Assembly: GCA_014905635.1 (NCBI GenBank)
Contig: CM026548.1
Location: 806,001 to 870,000, forward strand
Direction of reading: 5' to 3'
DNA from: Scenedesmus sp. PABB004
Taxonomy: Eukaryota
Length of the DNA stretch: 64,000 nt
The translations under genes and the position numbers were made by a program. Shown here in pieces: positions 7,495-61,548 of the stretch. Each line of letters begins with the position of its first letter. Position 1 is the stretch's first letter. Under the pieces are notes generated by a model. It was not told the DNA's origin. It saw only the letters and a program-made list of their open reading frames with translations, and made no database searches.

Positions 7495-10400
7495 ATGGCC
7501 GGCGATCAGCTCTTCGACGCTGCTGCTGCGCCGCGCGCTTCACTCCACTGCCGCTGCTGCCGGGCCGCCACGGCCGCCACACGAGCGCTGCTAAGAGCTC
7601 TCGCGGAGTCCGTGGCGGCCGCGGCGGAGCTGGTGGGCGGGGCTGGGCAGCGCAGCACTGCCCGGACGTGCGGGTGGAGCGCTACGGTGTTGGTGCCGTC
7701 GGTGGAGGCGAGCGCGGCTTGGGGCGCCCGCGTCGACGCCGGCCAACCTCTGCGGCGCGGCGTGCATCGCGGCTGCGTCGACCGCGCCGCCGGTGCGCCG
7801 CGGCCGAGCGTGGACCACTTTAGCAGCGGCGGCGGGTGCTTGCCACACGCCGACAACGGCTCGCCACGCAGCCCGGGCGCGCCGTCGCCCAAGGCGCGCC
7901 GCGTGGCGCTGCGCGGCGGCCACCGGCCGCGCCCGTTCCGGCGCTGCGCGGCATGGCAGCCGCTGCTGATGCTGCTGCTGCTTCGCCTGGCGGGCGCGGC
8001 GGCCGCAGCGCCAGCGGCGCCAGCAGCGGCTGCGGCGGCGCCGGCAGCGGCGCCGGCAGCGGCGCCGGCAGCGGCGGCGCCGGCAGCAGTGGCAGCGGCG
8101 GCGCCAGCCGCAGCGCCGGCAGCGGCGCCGGCGGCGGCGGGCGTGTTCACGCTCACCGCGACGTCGAACAAGGCGGAGGTCGAGGCCGCCATAGCGGACC
8201 CGCGCATCTCTCGGCTCGAGCTTGACGTGCCGTCCCACACGGTCGCGATCGCCCCGGGCGCGCCGGTCGCGGCGCTGACCCGCAACTTCACGTTTGCGAC
8301 CGCGCCCGGCCGCGCGCCGGCGGTGCTCGACCTCAACTTCCTGGAGCGCCGCGTGCAGATGGCGCCCAACGTCACTCTGCGGTTCGAGAACCTGGTGCTG
8401 CGAAACGCGCGCAAGCTGGCCGGCTTCCAGCTCGACATGTACCTCGGCGCGCCGGGGGCGGTGATTGAGCTGGTCAACGTCACGCGCGTCAAGCTTGTGT
8501 GCGGCAGCTCGTCCCGGGACGCGCTCGGCGCGCTCGCCGCGCTGCCGCGGCTGCCGGGGCGGCCGCCCAACGCCGTCGAGGTGCTGCCCGAGCTGTGCGT
8601 GCCGCTGCCGCCGCCCGACGGGGGGCGCTGCTTCGCGTCGCCGCTGCACTTGGAGTACTTTGCAATGCGCGTGAGCCAGAGCGACGCGGAGGGCATCTCG
8701 GACGCCGGCTACGTGCTCGTCCAGGTGCGGGCGCGGGCGCCGGCGCGGCGGCTCTGCAGCGCGGCGGCGGCCGGCCTGCTGTCGCGCGGCGCGGCCCGCG
8801 CCCGGCGGCGGCTCCAGCCCCGCGCTCTGCGCGCCGCGCGCCGCCTCGTGCCCAGGTCAACACGTCGCGCGTGTGCGTCGACTACGTTGACCCGGCGTGC
8901 GTGAAGGCGCACGGCGAGCTCGACTGCTGGGCGGAGAAGGCCTACCCGCTGCTGCAGCTGGCGGACGAGGGCGGCGCGGCGCGCGGCCTCGGGCCGGGCG
9001 GCATCGCCGGCGTCGCGGTCGCGGGTGCGCGGCGCGCAGCGCCGCGCCCGCGGCAGCGGGCCGCGGCAGCGGCCCGCTGCCGCGCGCCCGGCAGCGGGTG
9101 CTCACGCGCCCGACGCGGCCGCCTGCGCAGGCGCGCTGGTGCTGCTGGGCGCGGCGCTGTGCGTCGCGTACCGGCATCGCGTGCTGCGCTGCTGCGTGGG
9201 CGCTGCCGGCGGTGCCTTCAGGGAGATGCCCGCGTCCAGCGGCGGGTGCGGCGAGACCCCTGCCCGCGCGGCGGCGAGCAGCGGGGCGGGTGCCCGCGGG
9301 CGCGCTCCGAGGCCCGCCGCCGCTCCGCCGCGCAGGAGCCCCGCGTCGTCGGCCGACGGCCTGCCCGGCGAGGTGCTCGTCACCTGCCCGGCGGGCGCCA
9401 AGAGCAACGTGCTGCAGCACATCCGGCTCGGTGCGCACGCGCCGCGTCCGCCGCGTCCGCGGCCGCGTCCGCGTTCGCGTTCGCGTCCGCCGCCGCCTGA
9501 CGCCGCACGGCGGGCGTTCGCGCGCAGGCGTGCTCGTGGGCGCGGGGTCGTTTGGACGCGTGTACCGCGCCCGCTGGCACGGCCGCGAGGTCGCTGTGAA
9601 AATCATCACCTGCTCGGACGCCGAGCTGCCCCGCGTGCTCAAGGAGGCGGAGATCATGGTGCGGCGGCGGCCGGCGCCGCGCCCCCCGCTCCCGCGCGCG
9701 CGGCGCCGCGCCCCCGCTTCCGCGCGCGGGCGCCGCGCACGCGCACACGCACGCGCCGCGCCGCAGACCGGCATCGAGCACGAGTGCATAGTGCGGGCAC
9801 TGAATTGCACGGTCGTGCGGCGCACCGCGGGCGCGGTGGCGCGCAAGGTGCGGCGGGGCGCGGCCGCGGGCGCACGGCACGGGCCGCGTCGCGGCGAAGG
9901 GCGCCTGCTCACGCCGCCGCCCGCCCTGCGGTCGGGGCGTGCACGCAGCCTGGCGGCGGCGAGTACGCGCGCGCCGCCGGCAGCGGCCCCGCCACGCCGC
10001 CCTCCAGCCTCGGCGGGCCGCGCACCGCGCCGGCGCCGCCCGCCAGCCCGCCGCTGCCGCTGCCGGAGCGGCGCAGCCTGAGCAGCACGGGCGGCAGCAC
10101 GAAGGCCAGCGCTGCTGCTGTGTCCACCACGGCGCCCAGCACGCGCAGCAGCCTGGAGGCTGCACAGGGCGCTCGGCACGGCGCGCCCACCAGCCCGGGC
10201 CAGCCCCTGCACTACCTGCCGGCACCGCTGGCGAGCCTGCAGGAGGCCGGGCTGGGTTCGGCCGCCGGGCCGGGCGGCAGCGGCGACGCGCGCGGCGGCA
10301 GCGGCGCCGCCCAGCCGGCGGGCAGCGGCGGCAGCGGCGCGGCGTGCGCAGCGCCGGCAGGCGCTGCGAGCGGCACCGGCACTGGCACCACCGGCACGGG

Positions 10401-11959
10401 CACGGGCAGCTGCTGCGGCAGCAGCTGCTTTGGCAGCAGGGGCGCCGACGGCGCCGGCGCCGAGCTGCCGCCGCCCGTGGGCGCCGCCATCGACCTGGAG
10501 GCCGGCGGCGGCGGCGGCGGCGAGTCGGTCGAGGTGTGGCTGGTGATGGAGCTGTGCAGCGGCGGCACGCTCAAGGACGCGGGGCTGATGCAGCAGGGCA
10601 GGGACCCGGGGCTGAGCCTGGTGAGTGCTGAGCGCTGCGCCCGGCCGCCGCGCCGCGCGCCGACGTCGACGCCGCGCCGCGCCGACGCCGACGCCGCCCG
10701 CCCCGGCCGGCGGCGAGCGCAGGCGGTGCTGCTGAGCCGGCTGCTTGAGGTGGCGCAGGGCATGGCTTTCCTGCACGAGAAGCACGTGCTGCATGGCGAC
10801 CTCAAGGTGGGGCGCACCGCCGGCCATTCGGAGCGCACGCGCGCGCGCCGGGTGCCACCGCCGCTCGCTCACGCGCGCGCGCGCCGCGCCGCCGCCGCCT
10901 CTGCCGCCGCCGCGCCAAGGCGGCCAACGTGCTGCTCCACAACTCCATCCACGGACCCTATGGCCAAGTCGCAAAGATCAGCGACTTCGGGTGGGTCTGG
11001 CCGCGCGCGCCGCTGGGCCGCGGCGCGCGCGGCCCGCCGCCGGCCCGCCGCCGGCCCGCCGCCGGCCCGCCGCCGGCCCGCCGCGCGCGGACGCCCCGGC
11101 CGCCGCGCGCCCCGGCCCGCCGCCGCCGCCGCCGCGCAGGCTCGCGTCTGTGCTGGAGGGCGGCACGCACCGCTCGACGCAGCGCGCGGGGACCATCACG
11201 CACACGGCGCCCGAGGTGCTGCGCACCGGCAAGGTGTCAAAGGCCGCCGACGTCTACTCGTTTGCAATAATGGTGCGCGCGGTCGGGACCGCGGCGGTCG
11301 GGGGGCGAGCGTGCTGCTCGCGGCGGCGCGCGCCCGCCCGGCGCCTGGCGCCCGCCGCCGCCGCCCCTGGCCCCGACCGCGCACGCGCCGCGCCGCGCCG
11401 CGCCGCGCCGCGGCAGATGTGGGAGCTGTTTGCCGGCGCGTCGGCGTTCTCCAACCTGCACACCGGCAGCGTCGTGGAGCGCGTCGTGCGCGGCGAGCGC
11501 CCGCCGCCGCTGCGCGACGCGCCCGAGGAGTACTCGCTGCTTTTAAACAGCTGCTGGGCGGCCCACCCGGGTGATCGGCCCGACTTTGAGCAGGTGGGTC
11601 GGGCCGCCCTCCAGCGCGCCGGCCGCCGGCAGCCAGCGCGCCGCTGCGCGCCGGTCCACGCGCGGCCCTCCTCCGCCGCGCGCGCGCGCGCGCCGCAGAT
11701 CGTCGCCTGCCTGCACCTGCTGCTGGAGAACCTGGGCGCCCCGGACAGCGCCAGCGACGCCGGCGGCGACGCCGGCGGCGGCGACGGCGAGCCGGCGGGC
11801 AGCGGGGCGCGCCCGTGCGTGGGCGCCGCCGCGCCGCCGGCGCTCGTGCCCGCCGCCGTCGCGGCCGGCTCGGGCGGGCGGGCGCCGCCGGCGCCGGCGC
11901 GACCGGGCGGCAGCCCCGGGCCCGAGCTGCCGCCGTCGGCGTTCATTCAAGACCTCTGA
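7495..11959 (+). CDS. Receptor-like TKL Ser/Thr kinase (non-RD) with chlorophyte-type ectodomain and single TM, multi-exon; start at 7495 or 7969
   Basis: Hydrophobic LLMLLLLRLAG, (AAAP)n linker, ectodomain LDLNFLERRVQMAPNVTLRFENLVLRN, TM GIAGVAVAGALVLLGAALCVAY, kinase motifs GAGSFGRVY, VAVK, LVMELC, HGDLKAANVLL, DFG, GTITHTAPE, DVYSF, CW..RP; ends FIQDL* at 11959. Confidence 0.9.
8010..8140 (+). repeat. 12-nt tandem repeat (gcagcggcgccg)n encoding (AAAP)n
   Basis: Direct inspection; lies just after the hydrophobic segment of the kinase. Confidence 0.8.
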
Positions 11960-15268: not shown

Positions 15269-16545
15269 ATGGATCCCGCGCGCGTGGAGGACTTCAGCGG
15301 CAATGAGGAGGCGCAGCTGGAGGTGTTTGCCAGCTACACCTGCCGTTCGAGCGCGCGCCGCGGCCTGCCGCACGCAGGAGACATCGCCGAGCCGAGCTCG
15401 CTCAGGTGCGGGCAGCGCAACGCAGGGAACGCGCCGCTGCGGCCGGCACCGCGCACCGCGCACCGCGCACGGCGCGGCGGCCCGCCGAGCGCCGCCGCTG
15501 CTGCGCTGTCTCGCGCCCGCTGCCCGCGCCGCAGCGCGATCCCGCTGCCGCCGACGACCTACCCGCTGTGGGACGCGCTGCCGGAGGAGATAGTGTCGCA
15601 GGGCAAGCTCAGCCAGCTGCAGCGTGCGTGGCGGCGTGCGCGCGCGGGCCGCGCGCGCACGCGGCGGGCGTGCGGCACGCCGCTGCGCCCAGCCGCCGCC
15701 GCCAACCGCCCCGACCGCCGCGCAGTCGAGGGCGTGCTGTACGCGTGCAGCCGCAACCAGCAGGTGCTGCCCAGCGGCGAGCGCGCCGCGTTTTTCATCG
15801 GCGACGGTGAGCCGCACCGCCCGCGCCCGCGCCCGCGCCCGCGCACGCGCACGCTGAGCGCCGCGGCCGGGGCGCGCGCCTCCGCCTGCGCGCGCGCCCG
15901 CCCAGGCGCGGGCGTGGGCAAGGGGCGCCAGATCAGCGGCGTCATCGTGGACAACTACGTGCGCGGCCGGCGGTGCGCCCAGCGCCTGCTTGTGTGTGTT
16001 TGTTTCCTGCAAGCACCGCGCTTGCTCTCCGCGCGCCCCGCCCGCCGCGCTCTCCGCGCCGGCGCCGCCGCCCCTGCCGCCGCCGCCGCGCGCGCCGCCC
16101 ACGCGCGCGCGCGCCGCGCCGCCGCGCTGCGTGCCCCGCGCGCCCCGCGCAGGCGCCACGTGTGGCTGTCCACGAGCAGCGACCTGTACGTCGACGCGAG
16201 CCGCGACATGCGCGACCTCGGCGCGCACGGCGTGCGGCTCATCAACGGCTGCGCGGGGCTCGACGCCGGCACGCGCGCGCTCGGGCTCGACCGCGACCTG
16301 CAGGAGGGCGTCCTCTTCCTGTGAGCCGCCGCCGGGGGCCGTCGGGGTTTTGGCGGCGGCCGCACCGGGGTTCAGGCCGCGCGGGGGGCGCGGCGGAGGG
16401 GCGCGCGGCCCGACCCCGCCGCGCCGCACCCGCTCGCCCGTCGTGCCGCGCCCGCCCACCCGCTGCCGCCGCGCCCGCCGGCGCAGCACATACTCCACCC
16501 TCATCTCTGCAGGCCGCGGCGGCCGCAGCCGCATGGACCAGGCGC

Positions 16546-16597
<52 letters not shown>

Positions 16598-19500
16598 TGC
16601 GCTCGCTGCTCGGGGCCGGCCGGCCTCGCCCTGCGCGCGTGCCGCGCGGCGCTCACGGCCCGCCGCCGCGGCCGCGCCCGCGGCCGCCAGGTGCTGGAGT
16701 GGCTCGTCGGCGGCGGCGCCGGCGCGGCGTCGGGCGAGGCGGGCCGGGCGGCGTTCCGGGAGGCCCTCGCGGCGTGGGACGGCGTGCTGGTCTTTGACGA
16801 GTGCCACAAGGTCCGTGGCCGCCGGCGCGGGCACAGGGCGCGCACGCGCACACGCACCGGGCGCGCGTGGCCGCGGCGTGCGGGGCCCGACACCGCGCCT
16901 TGACGCCGCCACGCCCGCCGGCGCCGCGCGCAGGCCAAGAACTTCACACCCGGCAAGGAGGCGCAGTCCACCAAGGCGCGGGCGGCGGCCGCCGCGCGTT
17001 TCCGCCGCCCGGCGAGCCCCCGCGCCCGCGCCGCGCGCGCCCCGACGCCGCGCCGCGCCCCGCGCTGCGCCGCGCAGGTCGCGTCGGCGGTCATCGAGCT
17101 GCAGGCCCTGCTGCCCAACGCGCGCGTGCTCTACTGCAGCGCGACGGGCGTCAGCGAGGCGCGGCGCACGTCGCGCCGGCCGCGCCCCGCCCCCTTCTGC
17201 GCAGGGCGCGCCGTCCGCCGCCGTCCGCGACGCGTTCGCGCGCGCGCGCCCGCGCCCGCACTGCGCGCAGGTCGCCAACATGGCCTACATGTCGCGCTGC
17301 GGCCTGTGGGGGCCGGCGAGCCCTTTCCCCGACTTTTCGGCCTTCCTGGAGTCAATGCGCAAGCGCGGCGTGAGCTTCATGGAGCTGGTGCGGCATGAAC
17401 CGCGCGCTCATGCAGGGTTTAGGGCGCCGGGGCTTGTCGGGGCGTGTCAGCGCGTGCGTTGGACGCCTCCCTCCCTCCTCGGGCGTGGAAGCCTGGCCGC
17501 GGCGGACCCTGATGGGCGCCTTGCGGTCCGCGCCGCGTTCGTCGCCGCCGCCCCGCAGCTGGCCATGGAGATGAAAGCCACCGGGCGCTACGTGGCGCGC
17601 GGGCTGAGCTTCAGGCGCGGCGCCGCGCGGCGCACGGCGCGCCGCGCCCGCGCAAGGGGCCGGCCCGCCGGCGGGCGCTGCAGACGCGCGGCCGACGCGC
17701 GGCCGCCGCGCCGCGCCGCACCGCCCGCGGCGGCGCGCAGGCAGGCCGAGTTTGTGACGGCCGAGGCGCCGCTGCGCCCCGACCTCGTGCGCCAGTACGA
17801 CGCCGCCGTCGCGCTCTGGCAGCAGCTGCGCGCGGCGCTCGACCTCGCGGCGCCCACGCTCGCCGCCGCGGCAGGCGGCGGCGCGGGCGCCGAGGGCGGC
17901 GCCGCGGGCGGTGCCGGCGGCGGTGGCGCCGGCGGCGGCAAGCGGCCCGGCGACGTCATGAAGGCCTATTGGAGCGGGTGCGGCGCGCTCGTGCACACCC
18001 TCGCCCGCCCGCGCTCTCGCCGAATTGTCTCTTGCGGCGCGTCGCGCTGCTGCTGCGCAGCGCGTCTGCACACAGCACATCCCCGCCGACGCCGCTGCCG
18101 CCGCGGCTGCGCAGGCACCAGCGCTTCTTCAAGCTGCTCTGCATCGGGCTCAAGCTGGACACCGTCATCGCCGAGGCGCGCGCGCGCCCATGCGCCGGGG
18201 GCGCGACGGGGCCAGTCGTCGCAGCGGCCGCCGACCGCGCCCCGCGCGCCCCGCAGGCCAAGGCGGCGCTCGCCGCGGGCATGTCTGTCGTCATCGGGCT
18301 GCAGTCGACCGGCGAGGCCGCGGCCGACGCGCTCGGGCTCGAGCCGGGCCCGGTGCCGGGCTTTGTGAGCCCCTGCAAGGAGCTGCTCGAGCGCTTCATC
18401 ACCACCCACTTCCCCGTCCTCGCCGACAGGCAGGCGCAGCAGCAGGCGCAGCAGCAGACGCAGCAGCCCGGCGGCGGCGCGGGCGCGCTCGCGGCGCTGC
18501 GCGCTGAGCTGCTCAAGACGGTCGCCGCGCTCGACCTCCCGGCCAACTTCCTCGACACGCTCATCGACGAGCTCGGCGGCCCCAGCGCGGTCGCAGAGAT
18601 GACGGGGCGCAAGGGCCGCGTCGCGCGCGCGCGCGCGCGGCGGCGCCGCCGGCGGCGGGCGGCTCGTGTACGAGCTGCGCGCCAAGCCCGACTCAGGGGA
18701 GATGGACTCGCTCAACGGTGCGGCGGCGGCGGCGGCGGCGGCGGCGCGGGCGGCGCGGGCGGGACGGGCGGCGCGGGCGGCGCGGGCGGCGCCGGCGGCG
18801 GCGGCTGGCCGGCGACGCGCTGAGCGCTGCCCCGGCGCGCCCGCCCGCCCGCGCCCGCCCCCCGCGCGCGCGCGCGCGCGCAGTCGCGGAGCGTGAGGCC
18901 TTCCTGGCGGGCAAGAAGCGCGTGGCGCTCATCAGCGACGCCGCGTCGACCGGCATTTCGCTGCACGCCGCCGCGACCGCGGCCAACCGGCAGCGCCGGC
19001 TCCACCTGACCATCGAGCTGCCCTGGTCGGCCGACAAGGCCATCCAGCAGCTCGGGCGCAGCCACCGCACCAACCAGGTGCGCGGGTTGTGCGCCGCCGC
19101 GCGCGCTCCCTGCCCGCGCACGCTGGCCAAGTGACGACGCGCCCGCCCGGCGTACCCGGCCGCCGGTCCGTCGTCCCGCCCGTCAGGTCAGCGCGCCGCT
19201 TTACAAGCTCGTCACCTCGGCCGCCGGCGGCGAGCGGCGCTTCGCGGCCGCCGTGGCGCGGCGGCTGCAGAGCCTGGGCGCGCTCACGCGCGGCGACCGG
19301 CGCGCGGCGGCGGGTGCGTGCGCGCGCCGTGCCGTGCCCGCGCCCGCGACCGGCGCGCCTCCCACGCGCGCCGCCGCCCCTGCCCGCACAGGCATCGACC
19401 TGTCCGACTCGCACTTTGACTCGCCGTGGGGCCGCCGCTCGCTCAAGGCGCGCGCCGCGCTGGGCGCGCCGTCCGCGCCCGCGTCGGCGCCGCGGCGCGC

Positions 19501-20621
19501 CCCGTCGCTGAACCCCGATGAGCCCTCGCGCCTCGTCTGCCCCGCGCGCGCCCGGGCGCCCGCAGAAGATGTACGATCACATCGTCAACGAGTCCCCCCG
19601 CCTGCCCAACGGCGTCAGCGCCGCCGCGCTGCTGAAGGACCTGCTGCCAGAGGCGCAGCCGGGCGGCGGCGGCGCCGACGGCGGCGCGCCCGACGGCGCC
19701 GCGGCCGCGGCCGCGGCCGCGGCGCAGCACCGCGCCGCGCTGCGCCTGCTGCAGGCCGACGTGCCCGCGCTGCACGCGCTGCAGCGCCTCGCGGCGGCCG
19801 AGGCGGCGGGCCCGGGCGGCGCGGCGGGCGCCGCGGGGGGCGGCGGCGAGGCCGCCGCGCGCGGCAGCGCCAGCCCGCCGCCGGCCGCGGCGGCGGGGCC
19901 GGGCGGCGAGGAGCAGGAGGCGCTGGTGGTGGCCGCGCTCTCGGGGCGGGCGCTGCCGGCGGGCGTGGCCGCCGCGGCGGCGGCGCGCATGTCCACCGAC
20001 GAGGTCGCCGCGAGCGTCAGCGCGTTCCACCACGAGCTGCGCAGGTGCGCGCCCGGCCGGGCAGCCCCCGCCGCAGCGCGCTCGCGCCGGGCCGCGCGCG
20101 CGCGCGCGCGCGCCGATTGACCCCCGCCGCCGCCGCCGCCGCCGCCACCGCCGCAGCTGCTGCGACGTGATGGGCATCGGACTCGGCGCCTCGCGCGGCG
20201 ACACCGTGGCCGAGGTGCGCGGCCGCGCGGCGCCGCGGCCGGCCAGGCCGCTGCACGGCGGCAGCGCTGCGGCGCCCCGCCCTGCGCCGCCCGCCGCGCG
20301 GCCGCGAGCGCCGCCCGCCTGCCCGGCCGCCCGCGCGCTCGCGCGCCCGCCCGCGCAGGACCGGCTCCGCGACACGGTGCCCACCGCGCGGGGCGGCGCC
20401 GGCGCCGGCGCGGCGCCGGCGGCGGCGCCCAAGGCGTCGGACCTGGGCGACGTGCGCCGCTTCCTCAACCGCCTGCTGGGCCTGCCGCTGGGCAAACAAA
20501 ACCTACTGTTCAACTACTTCACCGCCACGCTGGCAGCCGAGATCGCGGCGGCCAAGGCCGAGGGCCGGTGCGAGGGCGCGCGCGCACCCCGCCGGCACCG
20601 GCGCTCGCGCGCCGACGCCGC

Positions 20622-20652
<31 letters not shown>

Positions 20653-23299
20653 GCGCCCGACTGGGCGCGCGCAGGTACACGGAGGGCGTGTCGGACCTGC
20701 AGGGCAGCAGCATCCGCCTCGCGCGCCCGCCCGAGCTGCTGTGGGTCGGCGCCGGCGGCGGCGACGGCGACGCCGGCGCGGCGGGGCAGACGATCGTCAA
20801 CACGCTGGAGATCGATCGCGGCGTGAGCTTTGAGGTGCGCGGGTCGCCGCCGCCGCCGCGGCGCCCGGGGCCCGCGCCGCGCCGCGCGGCGCAACAGGCC
20901 CGGCACGAGCTCTCGCGCGCGCCGCCGCGCGGCGCAGGACGCGAGCCGCCGCCTCGCGCACGAGGCGGCGCCGGGCAGCGGCAGCGGCTTCCGCCTCGCG
21001 CGGCGCGCGATGTGGGGCAGCAGCCTCGTGCTGCTCGCGCTGCAGAAGCCGGGGCACAAGGGCCTCTTCACGATCGTCCGGCCAAACACGGGTGCGCCGG
21101 TGCCCGCCCTGTGCCGCACCCCACTGCCTGCGCCGGCACGCCGGCGCCCCGCCGCGGCGCCGCGGTCGTGCGCAGCGGGCTGCACGGTCCCACCCGCGGC
21201 GCGGCCCGTCTCACGTGCGCGCGCCGCGGCGGTGGCGCAGGCGAGAGTGTGTTTGACATGGACCGCGGCGAGCTGGACGAGAAGTACCGGGCCATCAGCC
21301 CCGACGACGCGGCGCCCCACTGGCGCGAGCAGCACGAGCGCAGCCTCGCCGCCTGCATGCACGGCGCGAGCTGCGCGAACAAGGACACCTGCCAGGCGAG
21401 CGGGCGCGCGCGCCCGCGCAGCGCGCCGCCGCGCCGCGCGCCGCCGCGCCGCGCGCCGCTGCCGGCGCGCCGCGGCCGACACGCCGCTCGCCTCGGCCCG
21501 CGCAGATCGGGCGGCGCCTGGTGCACGTCACCGTCCTGTCGGGCAGCGTGGTTCGCGTGTGGGGCGTGCTGGAGAGCGTGCTGGACCGGCACACCGCGGA
21601 GCTGAGCCGGGCCGACCGCACGCTGCGCGTCGTGCGCGTTGCCTTCAGCGGCGGCGCCACGGCGCAGGCCGGCGGCAGCCAGGCACAGGCCGGCGGCAGC
21701 CAGGCGCCGGCCGGCGGCAGCCAGGTGCAGCCTCGCGGCAGCCAGGCGCAGAGCGGCGCGCCCAGCCCGACGCAGGCCGGCCGCGCTCAGGCAGAGGGCG
21801 CCAGCCAGCAGTCGCAGCAGCAGTCGCAGCGGGAGCAGGAGACGGCAGAGGGGGCGGAGCAGGCGGCATCGCCCAGCTCGAGCGCAGCCACGCCCCGTGC
21901 CGGCACCAGCGCCGGCGCCGGCGCAGCGAGCCCCGGCGGTGCCGGCCGCGCGCCGCTGGCGGCGCCGCCGGCCGAGCGGCACCTCGTCGGCGTTCGCTTC
22001 CCCTCCCAGCTGTTGCCCGAGGTCGTCGCCACGCTCGCGTCGCTGCAGGAGCAGCAGCGCCCGCAGCAGACGACGCTCGACGCGGCGTGGGGCCGCGGGC
22101 AGGGCGGCGCGCCGGGCGCGCCGCCGGCCGGCGCCAGCGCGGGCGCCGCGCCGGCGCCGCCCGGCGGCGGCGGCCGGTCGATGAGCGCGTGGTGGGCGGC
22201 GGGCGTCGCGTCGCAGCGCGCCGTCGCGGCGGCGGCGCGGCGCGGCGGCGCGGCGGCCGCGGGGTCGAGCCTGACCGACGCGCTCGGCATCGCACGCATT
22301 GATCCGCCCACGCCGGTGGACCCCAAGGCCGCGGCGCGCGCGTTCCGGGTGCCCAAGACGCTTGCCAGCTACTTCGCGCTCGCCGTCGCGCCCTCGCCGG
22401 CCTCGGCGGCGGCGGGCGCGGGCGCGGGCGCGGCCGCGCCGGCGCCGGGGGGCGGCGCGCCGCGCGGCGCGTCGGCGACGCCGCCCCCGCCGCGCCGCGC
22501 CGGCAGCGCGGGCAGCGCCGCCGCCGGCGGCGCCAAGGCGTCTGGCGCCAAGGCGGCCGGCGGCAAGGGCGCCGGCAAGCGCAAGGGCGCGCAGCAGCTT
22601 GGGCCGCAGAGCAAGCACCTGGACTGCTTCTTCAAGCCGGCGGTCAAAAAGGCGCGACCCCCGGAGCAGCCGCCGGGCGGCAGCGGCGTCGCGCCCCAGC
22701 TGCCGCAGCAGCGGCAGCAGCGGCAGCGGCAGCAGCGGCAGCGGCAGCAGCAGCAGCAGGAGCGCTCGTCGGTGATCGTTGTCGGCAGCGACTCGGAGCC
22801 GACCAGCAGCGACGCGGCAGGCGCCGACAGCCCGCGCGGCGGCGAGGCCAACGGCGCGCACGGGCGCGGTGCCGGCGACGACGGCGGGGCGCCGCCAGGC
22901 AAGCGGGCGCGGCGCGGCGCGGCGGCCCGGGCGCCCGCGGCGCAGGCGCAGGGCAGCGAGGACGCGATCAGCGACCCCGCCACCACCAACACCGACGGCG
23001 GCGGCGACGACAGCGACTGGGAGCTGGAGCCCGACAGCGGCCGCGCGTCGCCGCCGCAGCGCAACGCGCCGGCGCCCGTGCGCGCAGCCGGCGCCGGCGG
23101 CGCCAAGCTGCTGCCGCCGGGGCTCGGGCTGCGCACCGCCGCGGACGGCGCGGCCGGCGGCAGGGCCGGCGGCGACCCGCAGAAGCTGGCGGTGCTGCAG
23201 GGCATGGGCTTCAGCGCCGCCGACGCGTCGCGCGCGCTGTGGGTCGCGCAGGGTGACGTGTCGCGCGCGGTCGAGTTTGCGCTGTCGGGGTGCAGTTGA
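15269..23299 (+). CDS. Strawberry notch family SF2 helicase-like protein with C-terminal UBA domain, ~24 exons
   Basis: [91 protein letters not shown]...[107 protein letters not shown]. Confidence 0.93.
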
Positions 23300-23411: not shown

Positions 23412-23953
23412 TCACCCCGGCAGCGGCCGGCCGAGCAGCTTTGCCACGCGCACCTCGTGCGGCACAAACGGCCGGCCCTCCAGCACCACCCCGTCAGAGC
23501 GCCGGCCGCCTTGCAGCGCGCGCCAGGCCTGCGCCGTGCCGGCGGGCGCCGCCGCGGCCTGCTGCTGCTCGCCGCCGCCGCCGCCGGCGGGCCCCGCCTG
23601 CCGCGCCTGCGCCTGCTGCTGCCAGGCGCTGTGCGGCGTGCCCGCCGCGGCCGCGAGCAGCGACGCGCCGTCCACCGTGAGCGCCGCGAGCAGCGCGCGG
23701 TGGCGCTTGGCGCTCGCCTCGCTGCTGCGCTGCGCCAGCGCGAGCCGCGGAATGGCGTCGCGCAGCCGCTTGCGCGGCGCGGCCGCGCCCACGCCCGGCG
23801 GCTGCGCGGCGTCGCGCCCGGCGTCGCCGGCCCCCGCGTCCGGGATGGCGCAGGGCGTGCCGGGCGCGACGCGCCGGAACAGCCGCACGCCGCCGCCGTT
23901 GTCGTCTGCGGCTGCTGCTGCTGCTGCTCCTGGTGCTGCTGCTGCTCCTGCTG

Positions 23954-23984
<31 letters not shown>

Positions 23985-24504
23985 CCCTGCTGCTGCCCCT
24001 CCTGCTGCTGCTGCTCCTGCTGCTGCTGCGTCAGCGCCCTCCTCCAGCTGGCGAGCCAGCAGCACGTCCAGCGCCGCCGCGATCTGCGGGCCACAGCGCG
24101 GCGTGAGGGCAGGCCGCGCGGCAGCGCGCCGCGCAGCGCGCTGCGCCGCTCACCCGCTGGCTGGTCAGGTCCAGCTGCTCGCCGCCCGCGTCGCCCTCGC
24201 CGCCGCCGCCGGCTGCGGCGGCGCGCTGCGCGGCGCCGCTGCCACGCGGCGCCGACGCCGCCGCGCCCCTCCCCGACGCCGCGACCGCCGCACTGCGCCG
24301 CCGGGCGACGCTCTCTTGCTGCGGCGGCGGCGGCGCGGCGGGAGCGTGGGCGCCGGGGCGGCGGGCCTGCGCGCGAGCAGTGGGCGGTGGTGCCAGCCGC
24401 TGCCGCACCTCCTTGCGCGCCGCCTCCGCCACCTCCTCCGCGCTCACGGCGCAGGCCAGGAACCGCGACCGGTCTTCGTCGTCGCTGCTGCTGCTGTCGG
24501 CCAT
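23412..24504 (-). CDS. CUSTOS (C12orf43)-like protein, ~3 exons
   Basis: MADSSSSDDEDRSRFLACAVSAEEV...QLDLTSQR-IAAALDVLLARQLEE...DDNGGGVRLFRRVAPG...LLAALTVDGASLL follows my recollection of the CUSTOS motif order (SSSD-E..R..AAVS; A..L..LL; G.RLF). Confidence 0.6.
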
Positions 24505-24852: not shown

Positions 24853-27800
24853 ATGGCGGCGGCAGTGCCAGCGATGGCGCAGCAGCTGCGCAGCCTGTGC
24901 GCGGGCGTCGGCAGCCTCTGCGGCCCCGGCGTGGCGCCGCAGGCCCGTGAGTGGCGCGCCGCGGGGTGCCGTCGGCGCAGGGCGCTCCCAGCGCCCGCGG
25001 CGCGAGCAGCAGCGCCGCGCGCGGGCCCCCTCAACAATTGCCGCCGCTGCTGCCACCCCCGCCGCAGTCACGCCGCACATCCACCCGCCGGGCTCCGGCG
25101 CGGCGGTGTGCCAGCTTGACGCCGACGGCGAGAGCAGCGCCGGCGCCGGCGACGGCGACGACGGCACGCAGCAGCGGCCGCCGGAACTCGCGCAGCTGCT
25201 GAGCGCGAACCAGCAGCTGCTGGTGACGCTGCTGCTGGACGACTGGCGGGAGCAGCAGCAGCAGCAGGAGCTGCAGCAGCAGCGGCAGCAGCAGCAGCCG
25301 CAGGTGCAGCCGCAGGTGGAGCAGCAGGCGGAGCAGCAGGCGCAGGGACTCGCGGCGCCCGACGCCGACACCGCCGCCGCGGCGGGCGCCAGCGGCGGCA
25401 GCGACTGCGGGCGCGGGGGCGGCGCGCCCGGCGCGCCGGCCGGCAGCAGGTGGATGCACGCGGGGCTGCAGCAGTTTCTTTACGAGCTGGAGCGCGGGCC
25501 CTGGACCGGCGCGGCGGCGGCAAAGGCGGCGCCGGCGGAGCCGCAGCACGAGCCGCGCCGCGCCGCCGCCGGCGCCGCGCTGCCCCCGGCGCCCGGCTCC
25601 GACTGGCTGGACCGCGGCGGCGGGCTGCTCGACTGGCTGCGCGCCGCCCACCCCGCGGCGGCGCTGGCGGTGGACGGCGCGGTGGTCGGGCGGGCGCGCC
25701 CGGGCGCGTCCGAGGCCGGCAGCGGCGGCGGCGAGCCAGAGGGCGCGGCGCGCTTCCTGGCGCGCTGCGGCGCCGGCCGCAGCGCCCACCCCAACCTGCA
25801 GCCGGTGCTGCTGCTGGCGACGCGCAGCACCGACGCAGGCGCCGGCGACGGCGCGCGCTGCGCGGTCGTGAGCCCGCACGTCGCCGCCGACGCGCGCTCG
25901 CTGCTGCGCTTTGCGCCCGCCAGCCTCGGCGGCGACTGGCACCTCCGCTTCCTGCTGCACCAGCTGCTCTCCGCGCTCGCGTCGCTTCACGCCCAGGGCC
26001 TCGCGCTGGGCGGGCTGTCCAGCGAGCAGCTCGCGCTCGTTGCGCCGGGCTGGCTGCAGCTGCTCGCCACGCCCGCGGGCGCGCTCGCGCCGCGCGGCGG
26101 CGCCGCGCCCGGCGCCGCGCCCGGCGGCCGGCGGCCCGCCGCGGCGCTTGCGCTCGTCCGCGAGCCGGGCTACAGCCTGTCGCAGCTCACCGAGCTGTGG
26201 CGGCGGCGGGGGATCTCAAACTTTGAGTACCTGCTGTGGCTCAACGCCGCGGCGGGGCGGTGCTGGGGCGACCGCCGGCGCCACCCGCTGGTGCCGTGGG
26301 TCATCGACTTCAGCGCCCGGCCAGGTGCGGCGGGAGGAGCGCGCGGGGCGCGCAGCGGGGGCGCACAGCGGGGGCGGCGGCGGCGCGCCGCCGCGCCGCC
26401 GCGCGCGCGCGGCGCCGACGGCGTGCGCGGCCCGCGGCGGCCGCCGCGCGCAGACCTCGACGCGCGCGCCGGCGCCGGCGGCGCGCCGCCGCCCGGCTGG
26501 CGTGACCTGGGGTTCAGCCAGTACCGCCGGGCCAAGGGCGACGCGCAGCTCGACCAGACGTACGCGATGTCGGGCGCCGCGGCGGCCGCGGCGGCCGACG
26601 CGGCGGGCGAGCCGGCGGCCGCCGGCGCCGCGTCCGCGTCGTGGGACCCCTGGGCGCCGCCGCGCGGCTGGGGCGGCGCCGCGGCGGGCGCGGCGCCCGC
26701 GCCGGCGCCGGTGCAGGCGCACCACGTGAGCAACGAGCCGCTGAGCGAGCTGTCGTTTGCGATCTACGCCGCGCGCCGCCTGCCGGTCGCGCTGCTCGTG
26801 CGCCTCGTGCGGCGCAGCTTCCGGCCCGCCGAGTACCCGAGCAGCCTGGAGGCTCTCTACCTCTCCAGCCCCGACGAGGCGCTGCCGCAGTTTTACTGCG
26901 ACCCCCGGGTGCGTGCGGCGTGCGCGCGCGGCGCGCACGCAGGCGGCGCGGCGGGGAGCGCCCAGCGGGCGGCGCCGCCGCCGCGCGAGCGCCCGCCGCC
27001 GCGCGAGCGCCCGCCGCCACGCCGCGCCGCGCCGCGCCGCGCCGCGCGTCAGGTGTTTGTCTCGCGGCACGCCGGCATGACCGACCTGGCCGTGCCGGCG
27101 TGGGCGGGCGGGCCCGACGCGTTTGTCGCGCTGCACAGGTCCGGCGCGGCGGCTGCGGCCCCGCCGGCGCGGCGGCTGCGGCGCCGCCGCGCGCGCGCGC
27201 GCCCGAGCCGCCGCGCCCCGCGCCGCGCGCCGCAGGGCCGCGCTCGAGAGCGAGTACGTGTCGGCCAACCTGCACAAGTGGATCGACCTCACGTTTGGCG
27301 TCGCGCTCTCCGGCGCGGCCGGGCTGGCAGCCAAGAACATCCACCTGCCCGCCGGCGCCGGCGCGGGCGCGGGCGGCGGCGCCGGTGCCGGCGCGGCGAA
27401 CGCAGCAGCGGCAGGCGGCGGCGCCGCGGCCGAGCCGCCCACGCACGGCGTGTGGCAGCTGTTTGTGGCGCCGCACCCGCCGCGCGCCACGGCCGGCGAC
27501 GGTGGCCAGCAGCAGCTGCGACCCGCGCCGGTCGGGGGCGGCGGCGCCGAGGGGGCCGGCGACTTCCTGCAGCCAGAGGCAGAGGTGCCGCCGCCGCCGA
27601 CGCCGGGGCAGCTGGCACTGTGCTGGTCCGAGCTGTCCAGCCTCGAGGCGGCGGCCGCGGCCGGCTGCTGGAGTCCGGAGCGAACAGCGGCCCCCAGCGC
27701 GGCCGCCGGGGCCGCGGCGCAGCAGGCCAGCAGCGGCGGCGCCGCCGCCGCCCCTGCCCCTGCCTGCAAGCCGCTGCCGGCGTTTGCTGCCGACCTCGCC

Positions 27801-30659
27801 GCCGTGGGCGTCATCGCGGTGCAGCTCTATCGCGGCCTGCAGGCGCCGGGCGAGGACCTGGCGCTGGGCCGGGCGGCCGGCGCGCAGGCGGCGGAGCGGG
27901 CGCTCGCGGGCGCCGCCGGCGGCGCCCGCGCGCTCGCCGGCCTCGGCGCGCCGCGCGTGCCCGCGGCGGCGTCGCTCTTTGCGCGCCAGTGCGCCGCGGG
28001 GCAGCTCTCGGCGCAGGGCCTGCTGCGCAGCGCGTTCTTTCCGCCCTGGATGGAGGCGGCGCGGGACTTCATGCTGCGCCTGCTGTTCGCGCGGCACGCC
28101 CCCGGCGACGCCGGCGGCGCCGGCGATGGCGGCGCGGCCAGCTGGAGCGTGCGGGGCAACGCCTTTGCAGCGCTCGCGGAGCTCGCGGCGCCCGGCGGCG
28201 CGCTGCAGCAGCTCGCGGCGACGCCCGAGGCGCTGCAGCTGTGCCTGCCGGCGGTGCTGCACGTCGCGCGGGGCGGGCTGCTCGGCGGCGCGGCGCAGCA
28301 GGGCGGCGAGCGGCGGAGCGGCGCAGATGTCGTCGACGCCGCCTGCGTCGTCGTGCTGCGCCTGGCGGCCGTGCTGCCGCCGCTGCAGTTACAGCGCCAC
28401 CTGGTGCCGCTGCTGGCCGACGTCCTCGCAGTCGAGCAGCGCGGCGCGGAGCAGCCCGGCGCGGCAGTGGGCGGCGACGCGCTCCCGAGCGGCGGGGACG
28501 AGGGCGCCGGCCAGCAGCGGGACGGCGAGCAGGGCGCGGGGGTGCTCAGCGCCGCGGCGCGCGCGGCGGCGGGCAGGCGCGCCGCGCTGCAGCCGGTGCT
28601 GTGGCAGCTGCTGTCGGTGAAGCTCCCGCAGGCGGCGCTGGTGTCGGCGCTGCTGCCGCCGCTGCTGGCGGCAGTGCTCGAGCCGCAGGCCGATGGCCTG
28701 CTGGCGCCGGGCACCACCGCCGCGGCTGGCAGCCCTGAGGAGCAGCTGCTGCTCCTGCGCCACCAGCACGCGAGCGCCGCCGACGGCCCGGGCGACGTGG
28801 GCAGCCGGCGCGGCGGCGTGCTCGCCTTGCTGCCCCGCGGCGCGCAAGCGGCGGCAGCGGAACAGGGGCCCGCGGTGGCGGCGGCGGCAGGCCGGCCGCG
28901 CGCGCGGCGCCACCAAGACCAGGAGATCCAGCTGCCGCTGCAGCACCACGGCCACCTGCCGCATGCCGAGGCGCAGCAGAGCCACGCCCCGCAGGCGCAG
29001 CTCGGCGCCGGCTGCCTGGCGGTGCTGGCGCAGGCGCTGCCGTTCCCTGTGGTGTGCCAGCAGCTGCTGCGCCCCTGCTGCTCGCGCTGCCGTGGGCGGG
29101 TGCTGGCGGCGGCGCGCTGGGCGGCGCGCCCAACGCAGCCGCGCAGGCGCTCCTGGCGCTGGCCGCGGTGCTGCCGCGGCAGCTGGCGGCGGAGTACGTC
29201 TTTGCCCCTGCGCTGAAGCTGGCGCTGGCGCCGCTGGCCGCGCATGGTGGCAGCGGCGGCAGCGCCGACCCGGCGCCGCGCGTCGCGCAGCACACCCTCG
29301 CGGCGCTGCCGGTGCTCGAGGGGCTGCTGGGCGAGGTGCTGCCAGCGCTCGCGCCCGCCGCGCTGCTGCCGCCTGGCAAGGCGGCGCCCACCGCCCCGGC
29401 GCCGAGCGCGGCCGGGCCTGCTCCCGCCAGCGCTGGCGCCGCCGGAGCTGCAGGAGTAGCCGCGCCGCCCGGCGACGGCGCTGGCAGCGCAGGCAGCGGC
29501 GCCCAAGCGCCGGCGGGCGCCGCCGCGCCGCCGCCGCTGCCGCCCCAGCAGCAGCAGCCGGCCGGGGGCGCCGGGGAGTGCCGGCTGCACCAGGTGGCGG
29601 AGCTGTGGCTGGCGCCGCCGGACGCGGCGGCGGTCGCGGACTGCCCGCTGCTGTACCCCCGACTCGCGGCGCTGCTGCTGGTGTCGCTCGAGGCAGCGGC
29701 CACGTCCGGCGCGGGGCGCAGCCACGCCAAGCTGCTCGGCGGCTGGCTGCTGCCGCAGGTGCTGCAGCCGCTGCTCTCGCCGGACGCGGCCGAGGCGTGG
29801 CAGGCGGGCGGCGCCGCGCAGCGGCGCTGCTACCACCGCGTCGTGCTGCTGCTGTACGCTGCCACCGCGCGTGAGCTGGGCCTGCGGCGCGTGCGCGAGG
29901 CGCTGCCGGCCTGGCACAGCATTGAGGTGCGCCGGAGGCGGGGGGGGGGGGGGGGGGGGGCGCCGTGCGTGGCGCACGCGCGTGCCACGGCGGCGGCGGC
30001 ACGATCACCCGCCGCCCGCCCGCCGCCGCGCCGCAGGTCTGGCTGTCGGCCGAGACGGGCTGGGAGCCGCAGCAGGGCGCGCAGCAACTGCCCGGCGCGC
30101 TGCCCGCCGGCCCGCTCAGCGGCGGCAGCAAGGCGGCGCCGCCCGCGCCAGAGCCGCACCCACTGCAGCTGCTCGCCGTGCTGGCGGAGCAGGAGCGAGC
30201 GGCGACGGCGGTGGCGATCGCCGCGGCGGCGGCTGCTGCCGGAGAGCCGGCTGCGCCCGCCGCGGCGGCCGACGGCGGTCGTGGCGGCAGCCGCGTCGGC
30301 GACGCCTGGCCGCTGCCGGGCAAGGCCGGCGCCGCCCCGGCCGGCTGGGAGCCGCCCGCCGCCATCGTCGGCGCGGCGCGCAGCCGGAGCGCCGGCAGCG
30401 AGCCCGACGGCGGCGGCGCGCCCGGCCCCGACGCGAGCAGCCTGTCCGGCCGTGTGAGCGACCTGCTGCAGCGCATTGCTGAGGAAAAGGTGGCCCGGCG
30501 CAGCCTCAGCACAACGCACGAGTTCCTGGAGGGCGTGGGCTGGAGCATGCCGCGCCCGGTCAGCGCCAGCGCGGCGCTCGGCGGCGGTGCCGGCACGCCC
30601 GGCACCGCAGAGGCGGCGCCACAGCAGCAGGAGGAACAGCAGCGGCAGCAACAGCAGCA

Positions 30660-30696
<37 letters not shown>

Positions 30697-33146
30697 CAGC
30701 AGGAGCAGCTCCAGCACATGCGGCGCGCGCTGTCGGCGCCGCTGGCGGCGGAGCCGCCGGACGGGGCGCTGGCCGCGGCGGCGCGGCCAGCGCCCGGCAG
30801 CGGCGACGGCGGTGGCGCGCAGCCGCTGGCGGCAGCGACAGCCAACGGCAGCGCAGCGCACGCGGCCAGCAACGGCGGCCCGCCGCCGCACGTGCAGCTG
30901 GAGCACGCGACCAGCGCAGAGGGCGGCAAGGCGCCAGCGAGCGTCGCTGCGGCGGCGCGCGCCCCCGACGCGTCGCCGCGCAGCCCTGGCCGCCGTGCAG
31001 ACAGCCCGCCGCCACAGGCGGCGGGCCGCAGCTGGGCGGCGGAGCTGAGCGAGCTGCGGCTGCTGCTGGACTCGCCCGCGCGGAGTGCGTGCCGCGCGCG
31101 CACGCGCCGGCCTCGCACCGCCAGCTCCGCGCCGCGCGCGCCCGCCCGCCGCTGACACCGCCGCCCGCGCGCACCGCACCGCAGCCGCTGACCGCGGGCC
31201 CTCCGCGGGGCGGGAGTGGTTTTGGCTGCTCCAAAACCCCCAGCTCGACCCGCACCACCTGCTGCCGCCCGACCCCGCCGCCGCCGCGGGCGCGGGGCGG
31301 CCCTGGCGCAGCGTCGCGGGCGCGTGGTGGGAGGAGGGCTGGAGCCTCGGCGCCGTCGCGCTGCACGCCTGGCCCGCGCACCGCGAGCGGCTGCGCGCGC
31401 TCGCCGTCGACCCGGGCGAGCGCTGGGTCGCGACCGCGGGGCGCGGCGTCGTGCGCGTGTGGGAGCTCGCGGACGCGGAGACCAAGGTGCAGTACGCCGG
31501 CCACCGCGGCGCGGGCGTGGCGCGGCTCGCGTTTGTGGGCTGCGGCAGCGGCGCCGTCGCGAGCCTCGACGTGACAGGGTCGATCCACGTGTGGAGCCGC
31601 GCGACGGGTGCGGCCGCGTCGCCGCGCGACGCCGCACGTCGCCGCGCGACGCCGCACGTCGCCGCGCGACGCACCGCGCTGGAGCGGCTCACGCCGCGCC
31701 GCGCGCCGGAGCCGCAGCCTCACGCCGCTGGCCGTGCCGCCGGCCGCCGTCGGCGCAGGCACGCAGCTGACCTGCTTTGTGCCGTCGGACGTGAGCGAGC
31801 CCGCGGCGGCCGCCGCGCCCTCGTGGCGGGCAGCGGCGGACCTCACAGCAGCCGGCGACGCGCCGGGCGCCGGCGGCGCGCAGCAGCCCAGCTCGAGCGG
31901 GCCCGCAGCAGAGCCGTCCGGCGCCGGCAGCAGCGCGGCGGCGGCGGCGGCGGCGCTGCAGCCCTTGGCGCTGGCGGGCGGCGGCGGCTTCTTGGACCGC
32001 GGCTGCAGCAGCAGCCGCGGCTGGCAGGCGCTCGCGGCGCTGCCCAGCAGCCGGCAGCTGACGGCGGCGGGCGGCCCCGACAAGGCCGCCGCCGGCGGCC
32101 GCGACGGCGCCGACGCGGCGGCCGCCGCCGGCGCGGCGGACGGCGTCGGCAGCGTGCTCGGTGCCGGCCCCGCCGCGCTGGCGCTGGGCGGGCTGCACCG
32201 CGGTTACACCACTCTCGCCGCGGTCGGCCCCGGCGGCGCCTTCTGCGACCGCCTCGGCGCGCTCGGCACCGCGAGCGCGGCGCCCGGCGCCGCGGCCGGC
32301 GCGGCGGGCCTGGCCGCCGCGAGCGACGCGCCCGGCAGCGCCGGCCTGCTGCTCGCCGGCACCGCGGACGGGCACGTGTGCTGCCTCGACCTCGACTGCG
32401 GGGCGCTCGTCGACGACATGGTCGCGGCGTGGGAGCCCGGCCGCCCCGCGGCGGCGTGGGTGGGCCACACCGCCGCGCCGGGCGGCTGGGACGACCCCAC
32501 CGCGTGCGTGATCAGCGCGGTCGCGACGGGCGGCGACGCCGGCGGCGCGCCGGGCCCGTGGCTCGCGGCCGGCAGCGGCAGCGGGCGCGTCGCGCTGCTC
32601 GACGCGCGCGCCGGCGCCGCGCTCGCGGGCTGGCAGGCGCACGGCGGCGGCGGCGTGGGCCAGCTGTCGGGGCTGCGCGGCGTGCAGCTGCTCAGCTGCG
32701 GGCACGACCGCCTGCTGAAGCTCTGGGACCTGCGCATGCTCCGCGCCGCGCCGCCAGCGGCGCACGGCGGCGTGTCGCCGCTCGCCGTGTTTGCCGGCAG
32801 CCGCGCCGACGGTATCGAGGGTTTTGCGGTCTACCAGGACGCCGCGCTCGTGCACGGCGGCGCGGGGCTGGGCCTCGCGCCGCTCGCGGGCGGCGCGCCG
32901 CCGCCGCCGGCCGGCGGCGCGACGGCCGCGCCCGGCTGGTCGTCGGCCGCGCCGCCGGCGCGGCAGGTGCGCATGACGGGCGTGCGCGGCGGCGCCGCGC
33001 GCGGGGGCGGCGGGCTCAGCGGTGCCCCCGGCGGCGGCGCCCCCGGCGGCGGCAAGGCGTCGGCCATCGTCGGGCTGGGGCTGCTCCCGCACAGCAAGCT
33101 GCTGGTGGTGGGCTCCGAGGACGGGCAGGTCAAGGTCTGCCGCTGA
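24853..33146 (+). CDS. WDR81/GFS12-type protein: pseudokinase-like region, BEACH domain, helical region and WD40 repeats, multi-exon
   Basis: BEACH: LTELWRRRGISNFEYLLWLNAAAGRCWGDRRRHPLVPWVIDFS, WRDL..S.YR.AKGDAQLDQTY, HHVSNEPLSELSFAIYAARR, EYPSSLE..PDEALPQFY.DP, HRAALESEYVSANLHKWIDLTFG; WD40 AHRERLRALAV, LLSCGHDRLLKLWDL, LLVVGSEDGQVKVCR*. Start codon inferred; one apparent frameshift ~29073. Confidence 0.9.
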
Positions 33147-50327: not shown

Positions 50328-50635
50328 CTCGCCGCCGCCACTGTCGCCGCCGCCGCGCCTGGAGGCGCCTGGTCAGGAGCCCGAGCTACATGCTCGCGGG
50401 CGTCAGCGCTGCTCTGGCCGTGGCGGGCGCCGCGCGGCGGCGCCGCCGCTCCGCCGGGCGCTGCGCCGCGCTCGCCGCGATCGCTGGCGCACGCAGCCGA
50501 GCGTCGCCGCTTGCTGGCCCGGTTGCCTGCCCGCCCGCAGGAGGACGGGCGGCTCCTGCCGTCGCTGCCACCGCCGGCGCGAGCGAGCCCCAAACCGCAA
50601 GCCGTCGCGACGAGCGGCGTGCCACGCCAGTGCGG

Positions 50636-51433: not shown

Positions 51434-51656
51434 GCCGGCTGTTGCTGCTCAGAGATATCAAACAGTTAATGCGGCTGTCGGGGAGCGGTCCTGACGCTCT
51501 CTGACCAGGCGCGTGTTGGCGGGCTGGCCCGGACGATGAGCTGTCGCGCAGCGCTCGCTCGAGATGGCTCGGCGCCGCGACACGGAGTTCAGGGCGGGCG
51601 GCACGCCTCCCCACCAGCTGACCACCCCGCTGGCAAAGCCCTGACCCCGCGGCACG

Positions 51657-55353: not shown

Positions 55354-55384
<31 letters not shown>

Positions 55385-57685: not shown

Positions 57686-57721
<36 letters not shown>

Positions 57722-61187: not shown

Positions 61188-61548
61188 CCTGTTGCCCCGC
61201 CCCTGGGCTGCCTGGGCGCCTGTCACAGCGCTGCGGCTCGCCACGTCTCAGTGACAGCCGTGTGCTGCGTCCATGCGGGGCGGGAGGGCCTGGCGCGCGC
61301 GGGCGGGGCTGTGCAGGGCCCGGCAGGCGCTCGAGCGGGGCTGGCGCGCCGGGCACCGCGCGCCGCGAGCGCGGCTCGACCGGGGACGCTTGAGAGCAGC
61401 GTCGGGGCGCTCCTGGGCTGCGCGCCGCGCGGCGCCGCGCCACCTGGCGCGCCGCGCTCAAATCGAACCCCTGTGCCCCGCCTGACAACTGCGCAGCGCC
61501 CAGCCCGCCCCCGCCAGGCGCCGCAGCGGCAGCCGGGGCCCGCGCGCC

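Follow-up and report, generated by a model that had tools for sequence, protein, structure and literature searches.

Frequent GC-AG introns with an invariant exonic AG in a window of the GC-rich green alga Scenedesmus sp. PABB004

RESULTS

GC-AG introns of the strawberry-notch gene

Introns that begin with GC instead of GT and end with AG (GC-AG introns) make up 11 of the 39 introns that were verified, by orthologue alignment or from deposited gene models, in a 64,000-nucleotide (nt) stretch of nuclear DNA from the green alga Scenedesmus sp. PABB004 (GenBank assembly GCA_014905635.1, contig CM026548.1, positions 806,001 to 870,000 of the forward strand). This whole stretch is called the window here, and all coordinates are counted from its first letter. 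Seven of these introns lie in a single gene, a homologue of strawberry notch (SBNO; 15269 to 23299, plus strand), and all 11 are preceded by an exonic AG. It is likely that they are ordinary U2-type introns whose donors have exchanged T for C at +2 under GC pressure, with a conventional pairing threshold, compensation elsewhere in the donor, and a spliceosome that would be unchanged. The SBNO gene is named from its deposited protein: the 122-residue translation of one exon (18257 to 18622) is a 100% match to the 1769-residue "strawberry notch-like protein" deposited for Scenedesmus sp. PABB004.

The deposited protein (P0001) was placed on the DNA by exact matches, which gave 22 exons over 15269 to 23299, and all donor and acceptor pairs that reproduce P0001 were enumerated for each junction. 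Six junctions were possible only as GC-AG, and the 15 others were GT-AG. When this mapping was combined with an alignment (MAFFT) with 15 orthologues, the gene was found to contain 23 introns, 16 GT-AG and 7 GC-AG. An earlier note, made from the DNA letters, had proposed these same seven GC-AG introns out of about 23; every one of them was recovered and the total proved exact, the 23rd intron (15624 to 15725, GT-AG) having been added by the orthologues. Automated chaining of high-scoring segment pairs merged exons of this gene, and targeted junction tests were used in its place, in which all G-N donors and AG acceptors lying no more than 60 nt away were scored against four orthologues (Tetradesmus, Edaphochlamys, Trebouxia, and one further chlorophyte). 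The GC-AG pair scored highest at all seven junctions, each of which was also gapless in the 15-orthologue alignment. No in-frame GT-AG pair was present within 60 nt at three of the junctions (16542, 16976, and 21396), and at the other four the best GT pair either removed conserved residues or added 13 to 22 unrelated ones.

All seven introns are on the plus strand, and their donors are given here with a slash at the exon-intron boundary. The intron at 16542 to 16690 (CAG/GCGCGC, 149 nt) is defined by the sole pair that gives P0001 and was best against all four scoring orthologues. The intron at 16976 to 17077 (AAG/GCGCGG, 102 nt, in frame) was left as coding in the deposited model, and the 34-residue insert that it encodes is absent in 15 of 15 orthologues. 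Sole pairs giving P0001 also define the introns at 17159 to 17270 (GAG/GCGCGG, 112 nt), where the best GT alternative loses a conserved SE; at 17615 to 17740 (CAG/GCGCGG, 126 nt), where the best GT alternative loses nine conserved residues and a GG-AG pair scores within 2 to 4 points of the GC-AG pair; at 19448 to 19565 (AAG/GCGCGC, 118 nt), where the GT alternative adds 22 unrelated residues; and at 21396 to 21505 (CAG/GCGAGC, 110 nt). The remaining intron, at 18176 to 18256 (GAG/GCGCGC, 81 nt), is likewise the sole pair that gives P0001 and was supported by orthologue alignment and scoring; a repeat-shifted pair at 18182 to 18262 equals or beats it against two of the four orthologues, and both donors are GC. 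The SBNO protein of Scenedesmus sp. NREL 46B-D3 (P0003) shows insertion or divergence right after "GVSE" and "TCQ", and these two points are GC-donor positions here (17159 and 21396).

The deposited SBNO model contains at least three errors. Two in-frame introns of 102 nt are coded in it, the GT-AG intron at 15624 to 15725 and the GC-AG intron at 16976 to 17077, and the orthologues lack both of the resulting 34-residue inserts. Further downstream, between 18620 and 18720, the sequence "..MTGRKGRV" and the conserved segment after it sit in different frames (18254 to 18616 versus 18639 to 18716), with the frame break in a (GC)n/(CGG)n run at 18620 to 18660 on the plus strand. The deposited model skips this conserved segment by way of a GT donor at 18666, and the orthologues favour an intron at 18718 to 18883. 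Probably the assembly has slipped by one repeat unit here, a real lesion being the less probable reading. None of 21 short proteins matching SBNO terminates at a GC donor. A metagenome scan for SBNO relatives returned 57 loci, many of them labelled marine, typically with one unbroken match that spans about 3.3 kb and is about 42% identical, and these loci looked distant and largely intron-free.

GC-AG introns in other genes

Four more GC-AG introns, proposed by the same note in three other genes, were likewise verified. The gene for a PCYA-type bilin reductase carries one at 1056 to 1156 on the plus strand (CAG/GCGCGC, 101 nt), where only a GC solution was found; the 562-residue orthologue P0140 is contiguous over 10 junctions of this gene, nine GT-AG and this one GC-AG, and the exons downstream of the intron match the Pfam family Fe_bilin_red. 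Two of the five introns in the deposited model of SETD4 (P0125) are GC-AG, at 54388 to 54481 (CAG/GCGCGC, 94 nt) and at 55190 to 55406 (CAG/GCGCGG, 217 nt), both on the plus strand. Both junctions are gapless against Tetradesmus, Raphidocelis, and another orthologue, and for the second the pair analysis described below offers no GT alternative. At least 8 of the 11 GC-AG introns, six in SBNO and two in SETD4, are thus present in the deposited annotation.

The fourth intron, in TAF2 (48052 to 48187, minus strand; CAG/GCGCGT, 136 nt), was identified from an exon end that three relatives conserve, from the reading frame, and from coding potential. The search for TAF2 relatives yielded only four single-exon open reading frame fragments from genomic contigs and no full orthologue. 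Three of these fragments end the exon at "(K/R)RWQ" and continue with valine (GTN), at the point where the window has GCG. The GC solution led the GT solution by 11.7 in the pair analysis, and a GTGCG five bases downstream of the GC donor does not join in frame to the next coding segment. In a PDB search the exon that ends at this donor matched solved TAF2 chains, and the exon downstream of the intron gave no match.

At the protein level, therefore, the GC-AG intervals are absent from the mature coding sequence as judged from gapless orthologues over 10 junctions and, for TAF2, from the exon end only. Seven of the 10 plus-strand GC-AG introns measured have lengths that are not a multiple of 3, as has the 136-nt TAF2 intron, so that their retention would break conserved domains; three of the seven in SBNO are multiples of 3.

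Frequency of GC-AG introns in the window

The 39 verified introns are located at 823 to 3496, 15406 to 21505, 48052 to 48187, and 53971 to 55406. Their GC-AG share is far above the norm, as had been claimed, since GC-AG introns account for about 1.2% of introns in plants (PMC6310983) and non-GT-AG sites for about 2% or less in plants, animals, and fungi (PMC6310983, PMC7072748), by the figures that these two sources give.

The whole window was also covered by a pair analysis, in which codon log-odds were combined with splice-site matrices that omit positions +1 and +2 and were trained on 37 verified introns. Neighbouring segments with strong coding scores formed 104 pairs; for each pair, the best in-frame join was found per donor class, and a call was made at a score of at least 0 with a margin of at least 5. 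When GC was set against GT, 39 pairs were called GT and 11 GC, with 19 ambiguous and 35 fitting neither. The same procedure with decoy donors gave 46 GT and 3 GG calls (13 ambiguous, 42 neither) for GG and 56 GT and 1 GA call (4 ambiguous, 43 neither) for GA. The requirement for GC donors, at 11 calls versus 3 and 1 for the decoys, thus exceeds chance. Four of the 11 GC calls were new. Two of these (9032 to 9335 and 52324 to 52626) are without an exonic AG, with a GTGCG donor lying 7 to 8 nt upstream, and they were set aside as probably mis-paired exons; a third (30931 to 31017) is weak; and the fourth is a candidate intron on the minus strand of an INCENP-like gene (58327 to 58516; AAG/GCGCGC), which was found by the pair analysis only (GC 5.8 versus GT 0.8) and fits the AG/GCGCG pattern, with flanks of low-complexity coding sequence.

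We estimate the window-wide GC-AG share, crudely, at about 10 to 20%, with SBNO at the high end. By gene, GC-AG introns number 7 of 23 in SBNO and 1 of 10 in PCYA, with one GC call among 13 scored pairs in TAF2, and the SBNO rate is probably above the window average. Two further procedures were not accepted as evidence: a simple Viterbi gene finder that could use GC donors chained whole strands into 189 and 208 introns (124 and 146 of them GC), and a wrong-phase control of the pair analysis was ill-posed, as it puts the downstream exon out of frame.

Compensation at the donor sites

GC-AG introns ordinarily have a stronger consensus at the other donor positions. In the window, an exonic AG at -2/-1 was present at 11 of 11 GC donors, as the earlier note had said, versus 10 of 28 GT donors (Fisher P = 0.0002), and A at -2 was found at 11 of 11 versus 11 of 28. 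G occupied +3 and also +5 at all 11 GC donors and, at each of these positions, at 26 of 28 GT donors. The intron start read GCGCG at 10 of 11 GC donors, in agreement with the description of nearly all of them in that note, and the corresponding GTGCG at 19 of 28 GT donors. The number of matches to the nine positions of CAG/GTAAGT averaged 4.82 for GC donors and 5.18 for GT donors, with 4 as the lowest value for each class and no significant difference (P = 0.19). This equality indicates that the pairing lost at +2 is regained at -2.

Mean GC content was 90.4% for GC-donor introns and 84.9% for GT-donor introns (P = 0.015). Within intron interiors, GCG occurred 530 times and GTG 46 times, and yet T was retained at +2 in 28 of 39 donors (72%). 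Since T persists at this position despite a neutral bias of about 11:1 toward C, T at +2 is clearly still under selection.

Other intron signals

The acceptor was AG in 39 of 39 introns and read CGCAG in 29 of them. In the 20 bases upstream, T made up only 5 to 6%, C was enriched, and pyrimidines reached 0.61 versus 0.54 in the interiors (P = 0.001); the suggestion that acceptors lack pyrimidine tracts was therefore right for T and wrong for pyrimidines as a whole. A yTnAy branch motif was present 8 to 70 nt upstream of the acceptor in only 13 of 39 introns. Across the 39 verified introns, donor, branch, and acceptor signals have all moved toward G+C.

All 11 GC-AG introns have GC at +1/+2 and AG at the 3' end, as U2-type GC-AG introns do. 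U12-type (minor) introns have a /[AG]TATCCTT donor and a TCCTTAAC-like branch site; all 11 GC donors read GCG(C/A)G, none has the U12 donor motif, and this type was rejected. An introner-like mobile family was rejected as well, because, in an all-against-all blastn comparison of the 39 introns with 268 short matches, no co-linear sequence appeared among the matches listed; these were out of register, lay in GCC/CGC-type repeats, and joined GT and GC introns alike. An Rfam scan of the 64-kb window returned no family at gathering score and so no small nuclear RNA (snRNA) gene within it.

Gene content and base composition

GC content is 77 to 82% in every 4-kb bin of the window and about 80% overall. 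For the strain as a whole, PMC12571836 (Table 1) gives a genome of 39.8 Mb in 77 contigs, with 7,092 genes and 78.5% GC; among the relatives that it lists, most are at about 56 to 57% (Tetradesmus and Scenedesmus NREL 46B-D3), with Monoraphidium at 65% and Raphidocelis at 71.5%.

Apart from SBNO and SETD4 (53518 to 56036, plus strand), the latter also named from its deposited protein, the genes were inventoried by a Pfam scan of 98 exon segments, which is too coarse for donor placement. On the plus strand these are the PCYA-type bilin reductase (about 640 to 3640), a protein kinase (about 8140 to 11800), a BEACH/WD40 protein (about 25067 to 33137), and a DXD glycosyltransferase (61967 to 62834); on the minus strand they are a MINDY deubiquitinase (33376 to 35599), TAF2 (about 44282 to 50354), HisIE (about 50726 to 53131), and the INCENP-like gene (about 56680 to 61250). 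Long triplet repeats of the Gln/Ser/Leu type at 23903 to 24058, 30619 to 30717, and 34741 to 34863 give coding-like scores in several frames of each strand.

DISCUSSION

Origin of the GC donors

The explanation that we favour, a change from T to C at +2 in ordinary U2-type introns, may be laid out as follows. Extreme GC-biased mutation or gene conversion would push T to C at donor +2, in line with the roughly 11-fold excess of C over T in the neutral G_G context of the introns, and selection would keep T there in most donors. The change would be tolerated and fixed where the remaining site pairs well with U1 (and U5/U6), that is, where A is present at -2 and G at -1, +1, +3, and +5, and the resulting local consensus would be AG/GCGCG, the C variant of this genome's G/GTGCG, with GC-AG introns at roughly 10 to 30% of the total. 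The direction of change is suggested by TAF2, in which three relatives apparently have GT (read through as valine) at the donor that is GC here. GC pressure had been named in the earlier note as a possible driver, and it remains a plausible one given a genome GC of 78.5% (PMC12571836) and the same link in PMC4028052 and bioRxiv 10.1101/2024.10.30.620910. That exon pairing counts for more here, a further idea of the note, is consistent with an exonic AG that never varies at GC donors. The note's proposal of relaxed or altered splice-site recognition through a variant U1, U6, or U1-C is not supported, in that GC donors need A at -2 and match the consensus as well as GT donors do.

Several points weigh against this explanation. 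The 39-intron sample is biased toward genes in which GC donors had already been seen, and 7 of the 11 GC calls in the pair analysis are verified introns and thus not independent of its training. Among the genes that had not been listed beforehand, the confident and ambiguous outcomes were 18 GT, 4 GC, and 10 ambiguous, and the GC-AG rate there may be only about 5 to 10%. The difference in GC content between intron classes is not significant within SBNO alone (P = 0.15), and the direction of change was compared at one intron only (TAF2). In addition, the U1 5' end behind the consensus argument is presumably the canonical form, taken from general knowledge and not from this genome, and splicing at the GC donors is deduced solely from protein conservation and reading frame.

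We also considered the possibility that the spliceosome itself has changed, through an altered U6 or U1-C or through a U1 whose variant 5' end pairs, for example, with C at +2, so that GC would be as good a donor as GT. Such a change would accommodate a GC-AG share far above the usual 1 to 2%, donors that are weak by vertebrate standards (GCGCG and not GCAAGT), and the concurrent shift of all three signals, with the branch motif in only 13 of 39 introns and acceptors almost without T. We nevertheless regard it as unlikely, since A at -2 and G at -1 occur in 11 of 11 GC donors versus 10 of 28 GT donors, since the two classes are equally complementary, overall, to the standard consensus, and since T is held at +2 in 72% of donors against the 11:1 neutral bias. 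A U1 adapted to C would need no compensation, and compensation at GC donors together with an equal consensus match is consistent with a conventional U1, with snRNAs that would be unchanged. A related idea, that PABB004 is already part-way to the state of the haptophyte Emiliania huxleyi (discussed below), with a co-evolved spliceosome whose U1 5' end, U1-C, or U5 loop leans on -2/-1, is a speculative one that we consider improbable. If it were true, GC donors, degenerate branch sites, and T-free acceptors would all be made to work by the same co-evolved machinery, and the strain would offer a tractable green-algal system for the co-evolution of splice signals and snRNAs under GC pressure.

Also unlikely is a regulatory role, in which the GC donors would be weak sites maintained for intron retention or alternative splicing, concentrated in particular genes such as SBNO and not produced by drift across the genome. 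The higher count in SBNO (7 of 23) than in PCYA (1 of 10) and TAF2 (1 call in 13 pairs) would point that way, as would the three in-frame lengths among its seven GC-AG introns and the deposited model that codes through 16976 to 17077. Against this, SBNO does not differ significantly from PCYA and SETD4 taken together (7 of 23 versus 3 of 15, P = 0.71), at 80% GC chance alone should yield stop-free in-frame introns, and the GT-AG intron at 15624 to 15725 is likewise retained in the deposited model. Least probable of all, and very much so, is an artefact of assembly base errors or of gene-model choices, with true transcripts that use GT or retain the intervals. The probable indel in the (GC)n run, at least one such in the SBNO assembly, and the errors of the deposited model show that neither source is free of faults; but 11 independent sites all lie in an AG/GCG context, and random T-to-C errors would not hit only donors with an exonic AG. 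Moreover, three of the seven SBNO sites lack an in-frame GT-AG pair within 60 nt and the GT options at the other four disrupt conserved residues, and decoy donors were seldom required (GG 3 and GA 1, versus GC 11).

The frequent GC donors have practical and comparative consequences. Gene predictors that accept only GT donors or favour them will mis-model many genes in PABB004 and in similar GC-rich algae, and the deposited SBNO model is an example, with one GC-AG and one GT-AG intron coded and one conserved segment skipped. The compensation rule is clear in the window, as GC donors always come with an exonic AG. The sequenced relatives at 56 to 57% GC (Tetradesmus and Scenedesmus NREL 46B-D3) and at 65 to 71% (Monoraphidium and Raphidocelis), as given in PMC12571836, provide a graded series in which the effects of mutation bias and of selection on splice-site composition can be measured.

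Comparison with known systems

PABB004 appears to extend the GC-donor enrichment published for GC-rich genomes, those of E. huxleyi and the pelagophytes, to a chlorophyte. Genome GC content and GC donors would be linked in a green alga as well, one with the highest genome GC among those listed for its group. No report of a GC-AG excess in Scenedesmus or another chlorophyte was found in the literature searched, and the strain's original genome paper may hold splice-site statistics. The closest parallel is E. huxleyi, which at 65% GC has about 60% GC donors, validated by reverse transcription-PCR, expressed sequence tags, and RNA sequencing and credited by the authors to GC content (PMC4028052). 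It shares with PABB004 a GC-rich genome, many GC donors, an invariant AG acceptor, and genes that are mis-modelled by GT-only predictors; it differs in being a haptophyte with a GC majority, whereas PABB004 is a chlorophyte with a GT majority (28 of 39) at 78.5% GC, known here from protein comparison.

A comparable GC-AG share in a GC-rich genome is seen in Aureococcus anophagefferens and Pelagomonas calceolata, in which about 14 to 17% of introns are predicted to be GC-AG and the excess is ascribed to high GC, with 0.32% in a lower-GC relative (bioRxiv 10.1101/2024.10.30.620910); unlike PABB004, these are stramenopiles with few introns per gene, and their figures come from predictions. The ordinary U2-type GC-AG introns of plants and animals (PMC6310983, PMC7072748) likewise have GC at +1/+2 and an AG acceptor, but in the window from PABB004 such introns are 10 to 25 times more frequent, read GCGCG and not GCAAGT, and find their compensation in exonic -2A and -1G. 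Finally, the GA-AG donors of Eurytemora affinis and Oikopleura dioica, which are flanked by a highly conserved upstream AG (PMC7072748), resemble the introns described here as a lineage-specific rise of a non-GT donor with an upstream AG; in those species, which are animals and for which that source, as far as it was consulted, describes no link to GC content, position +2 is A, whereas in PABB004 it is C.

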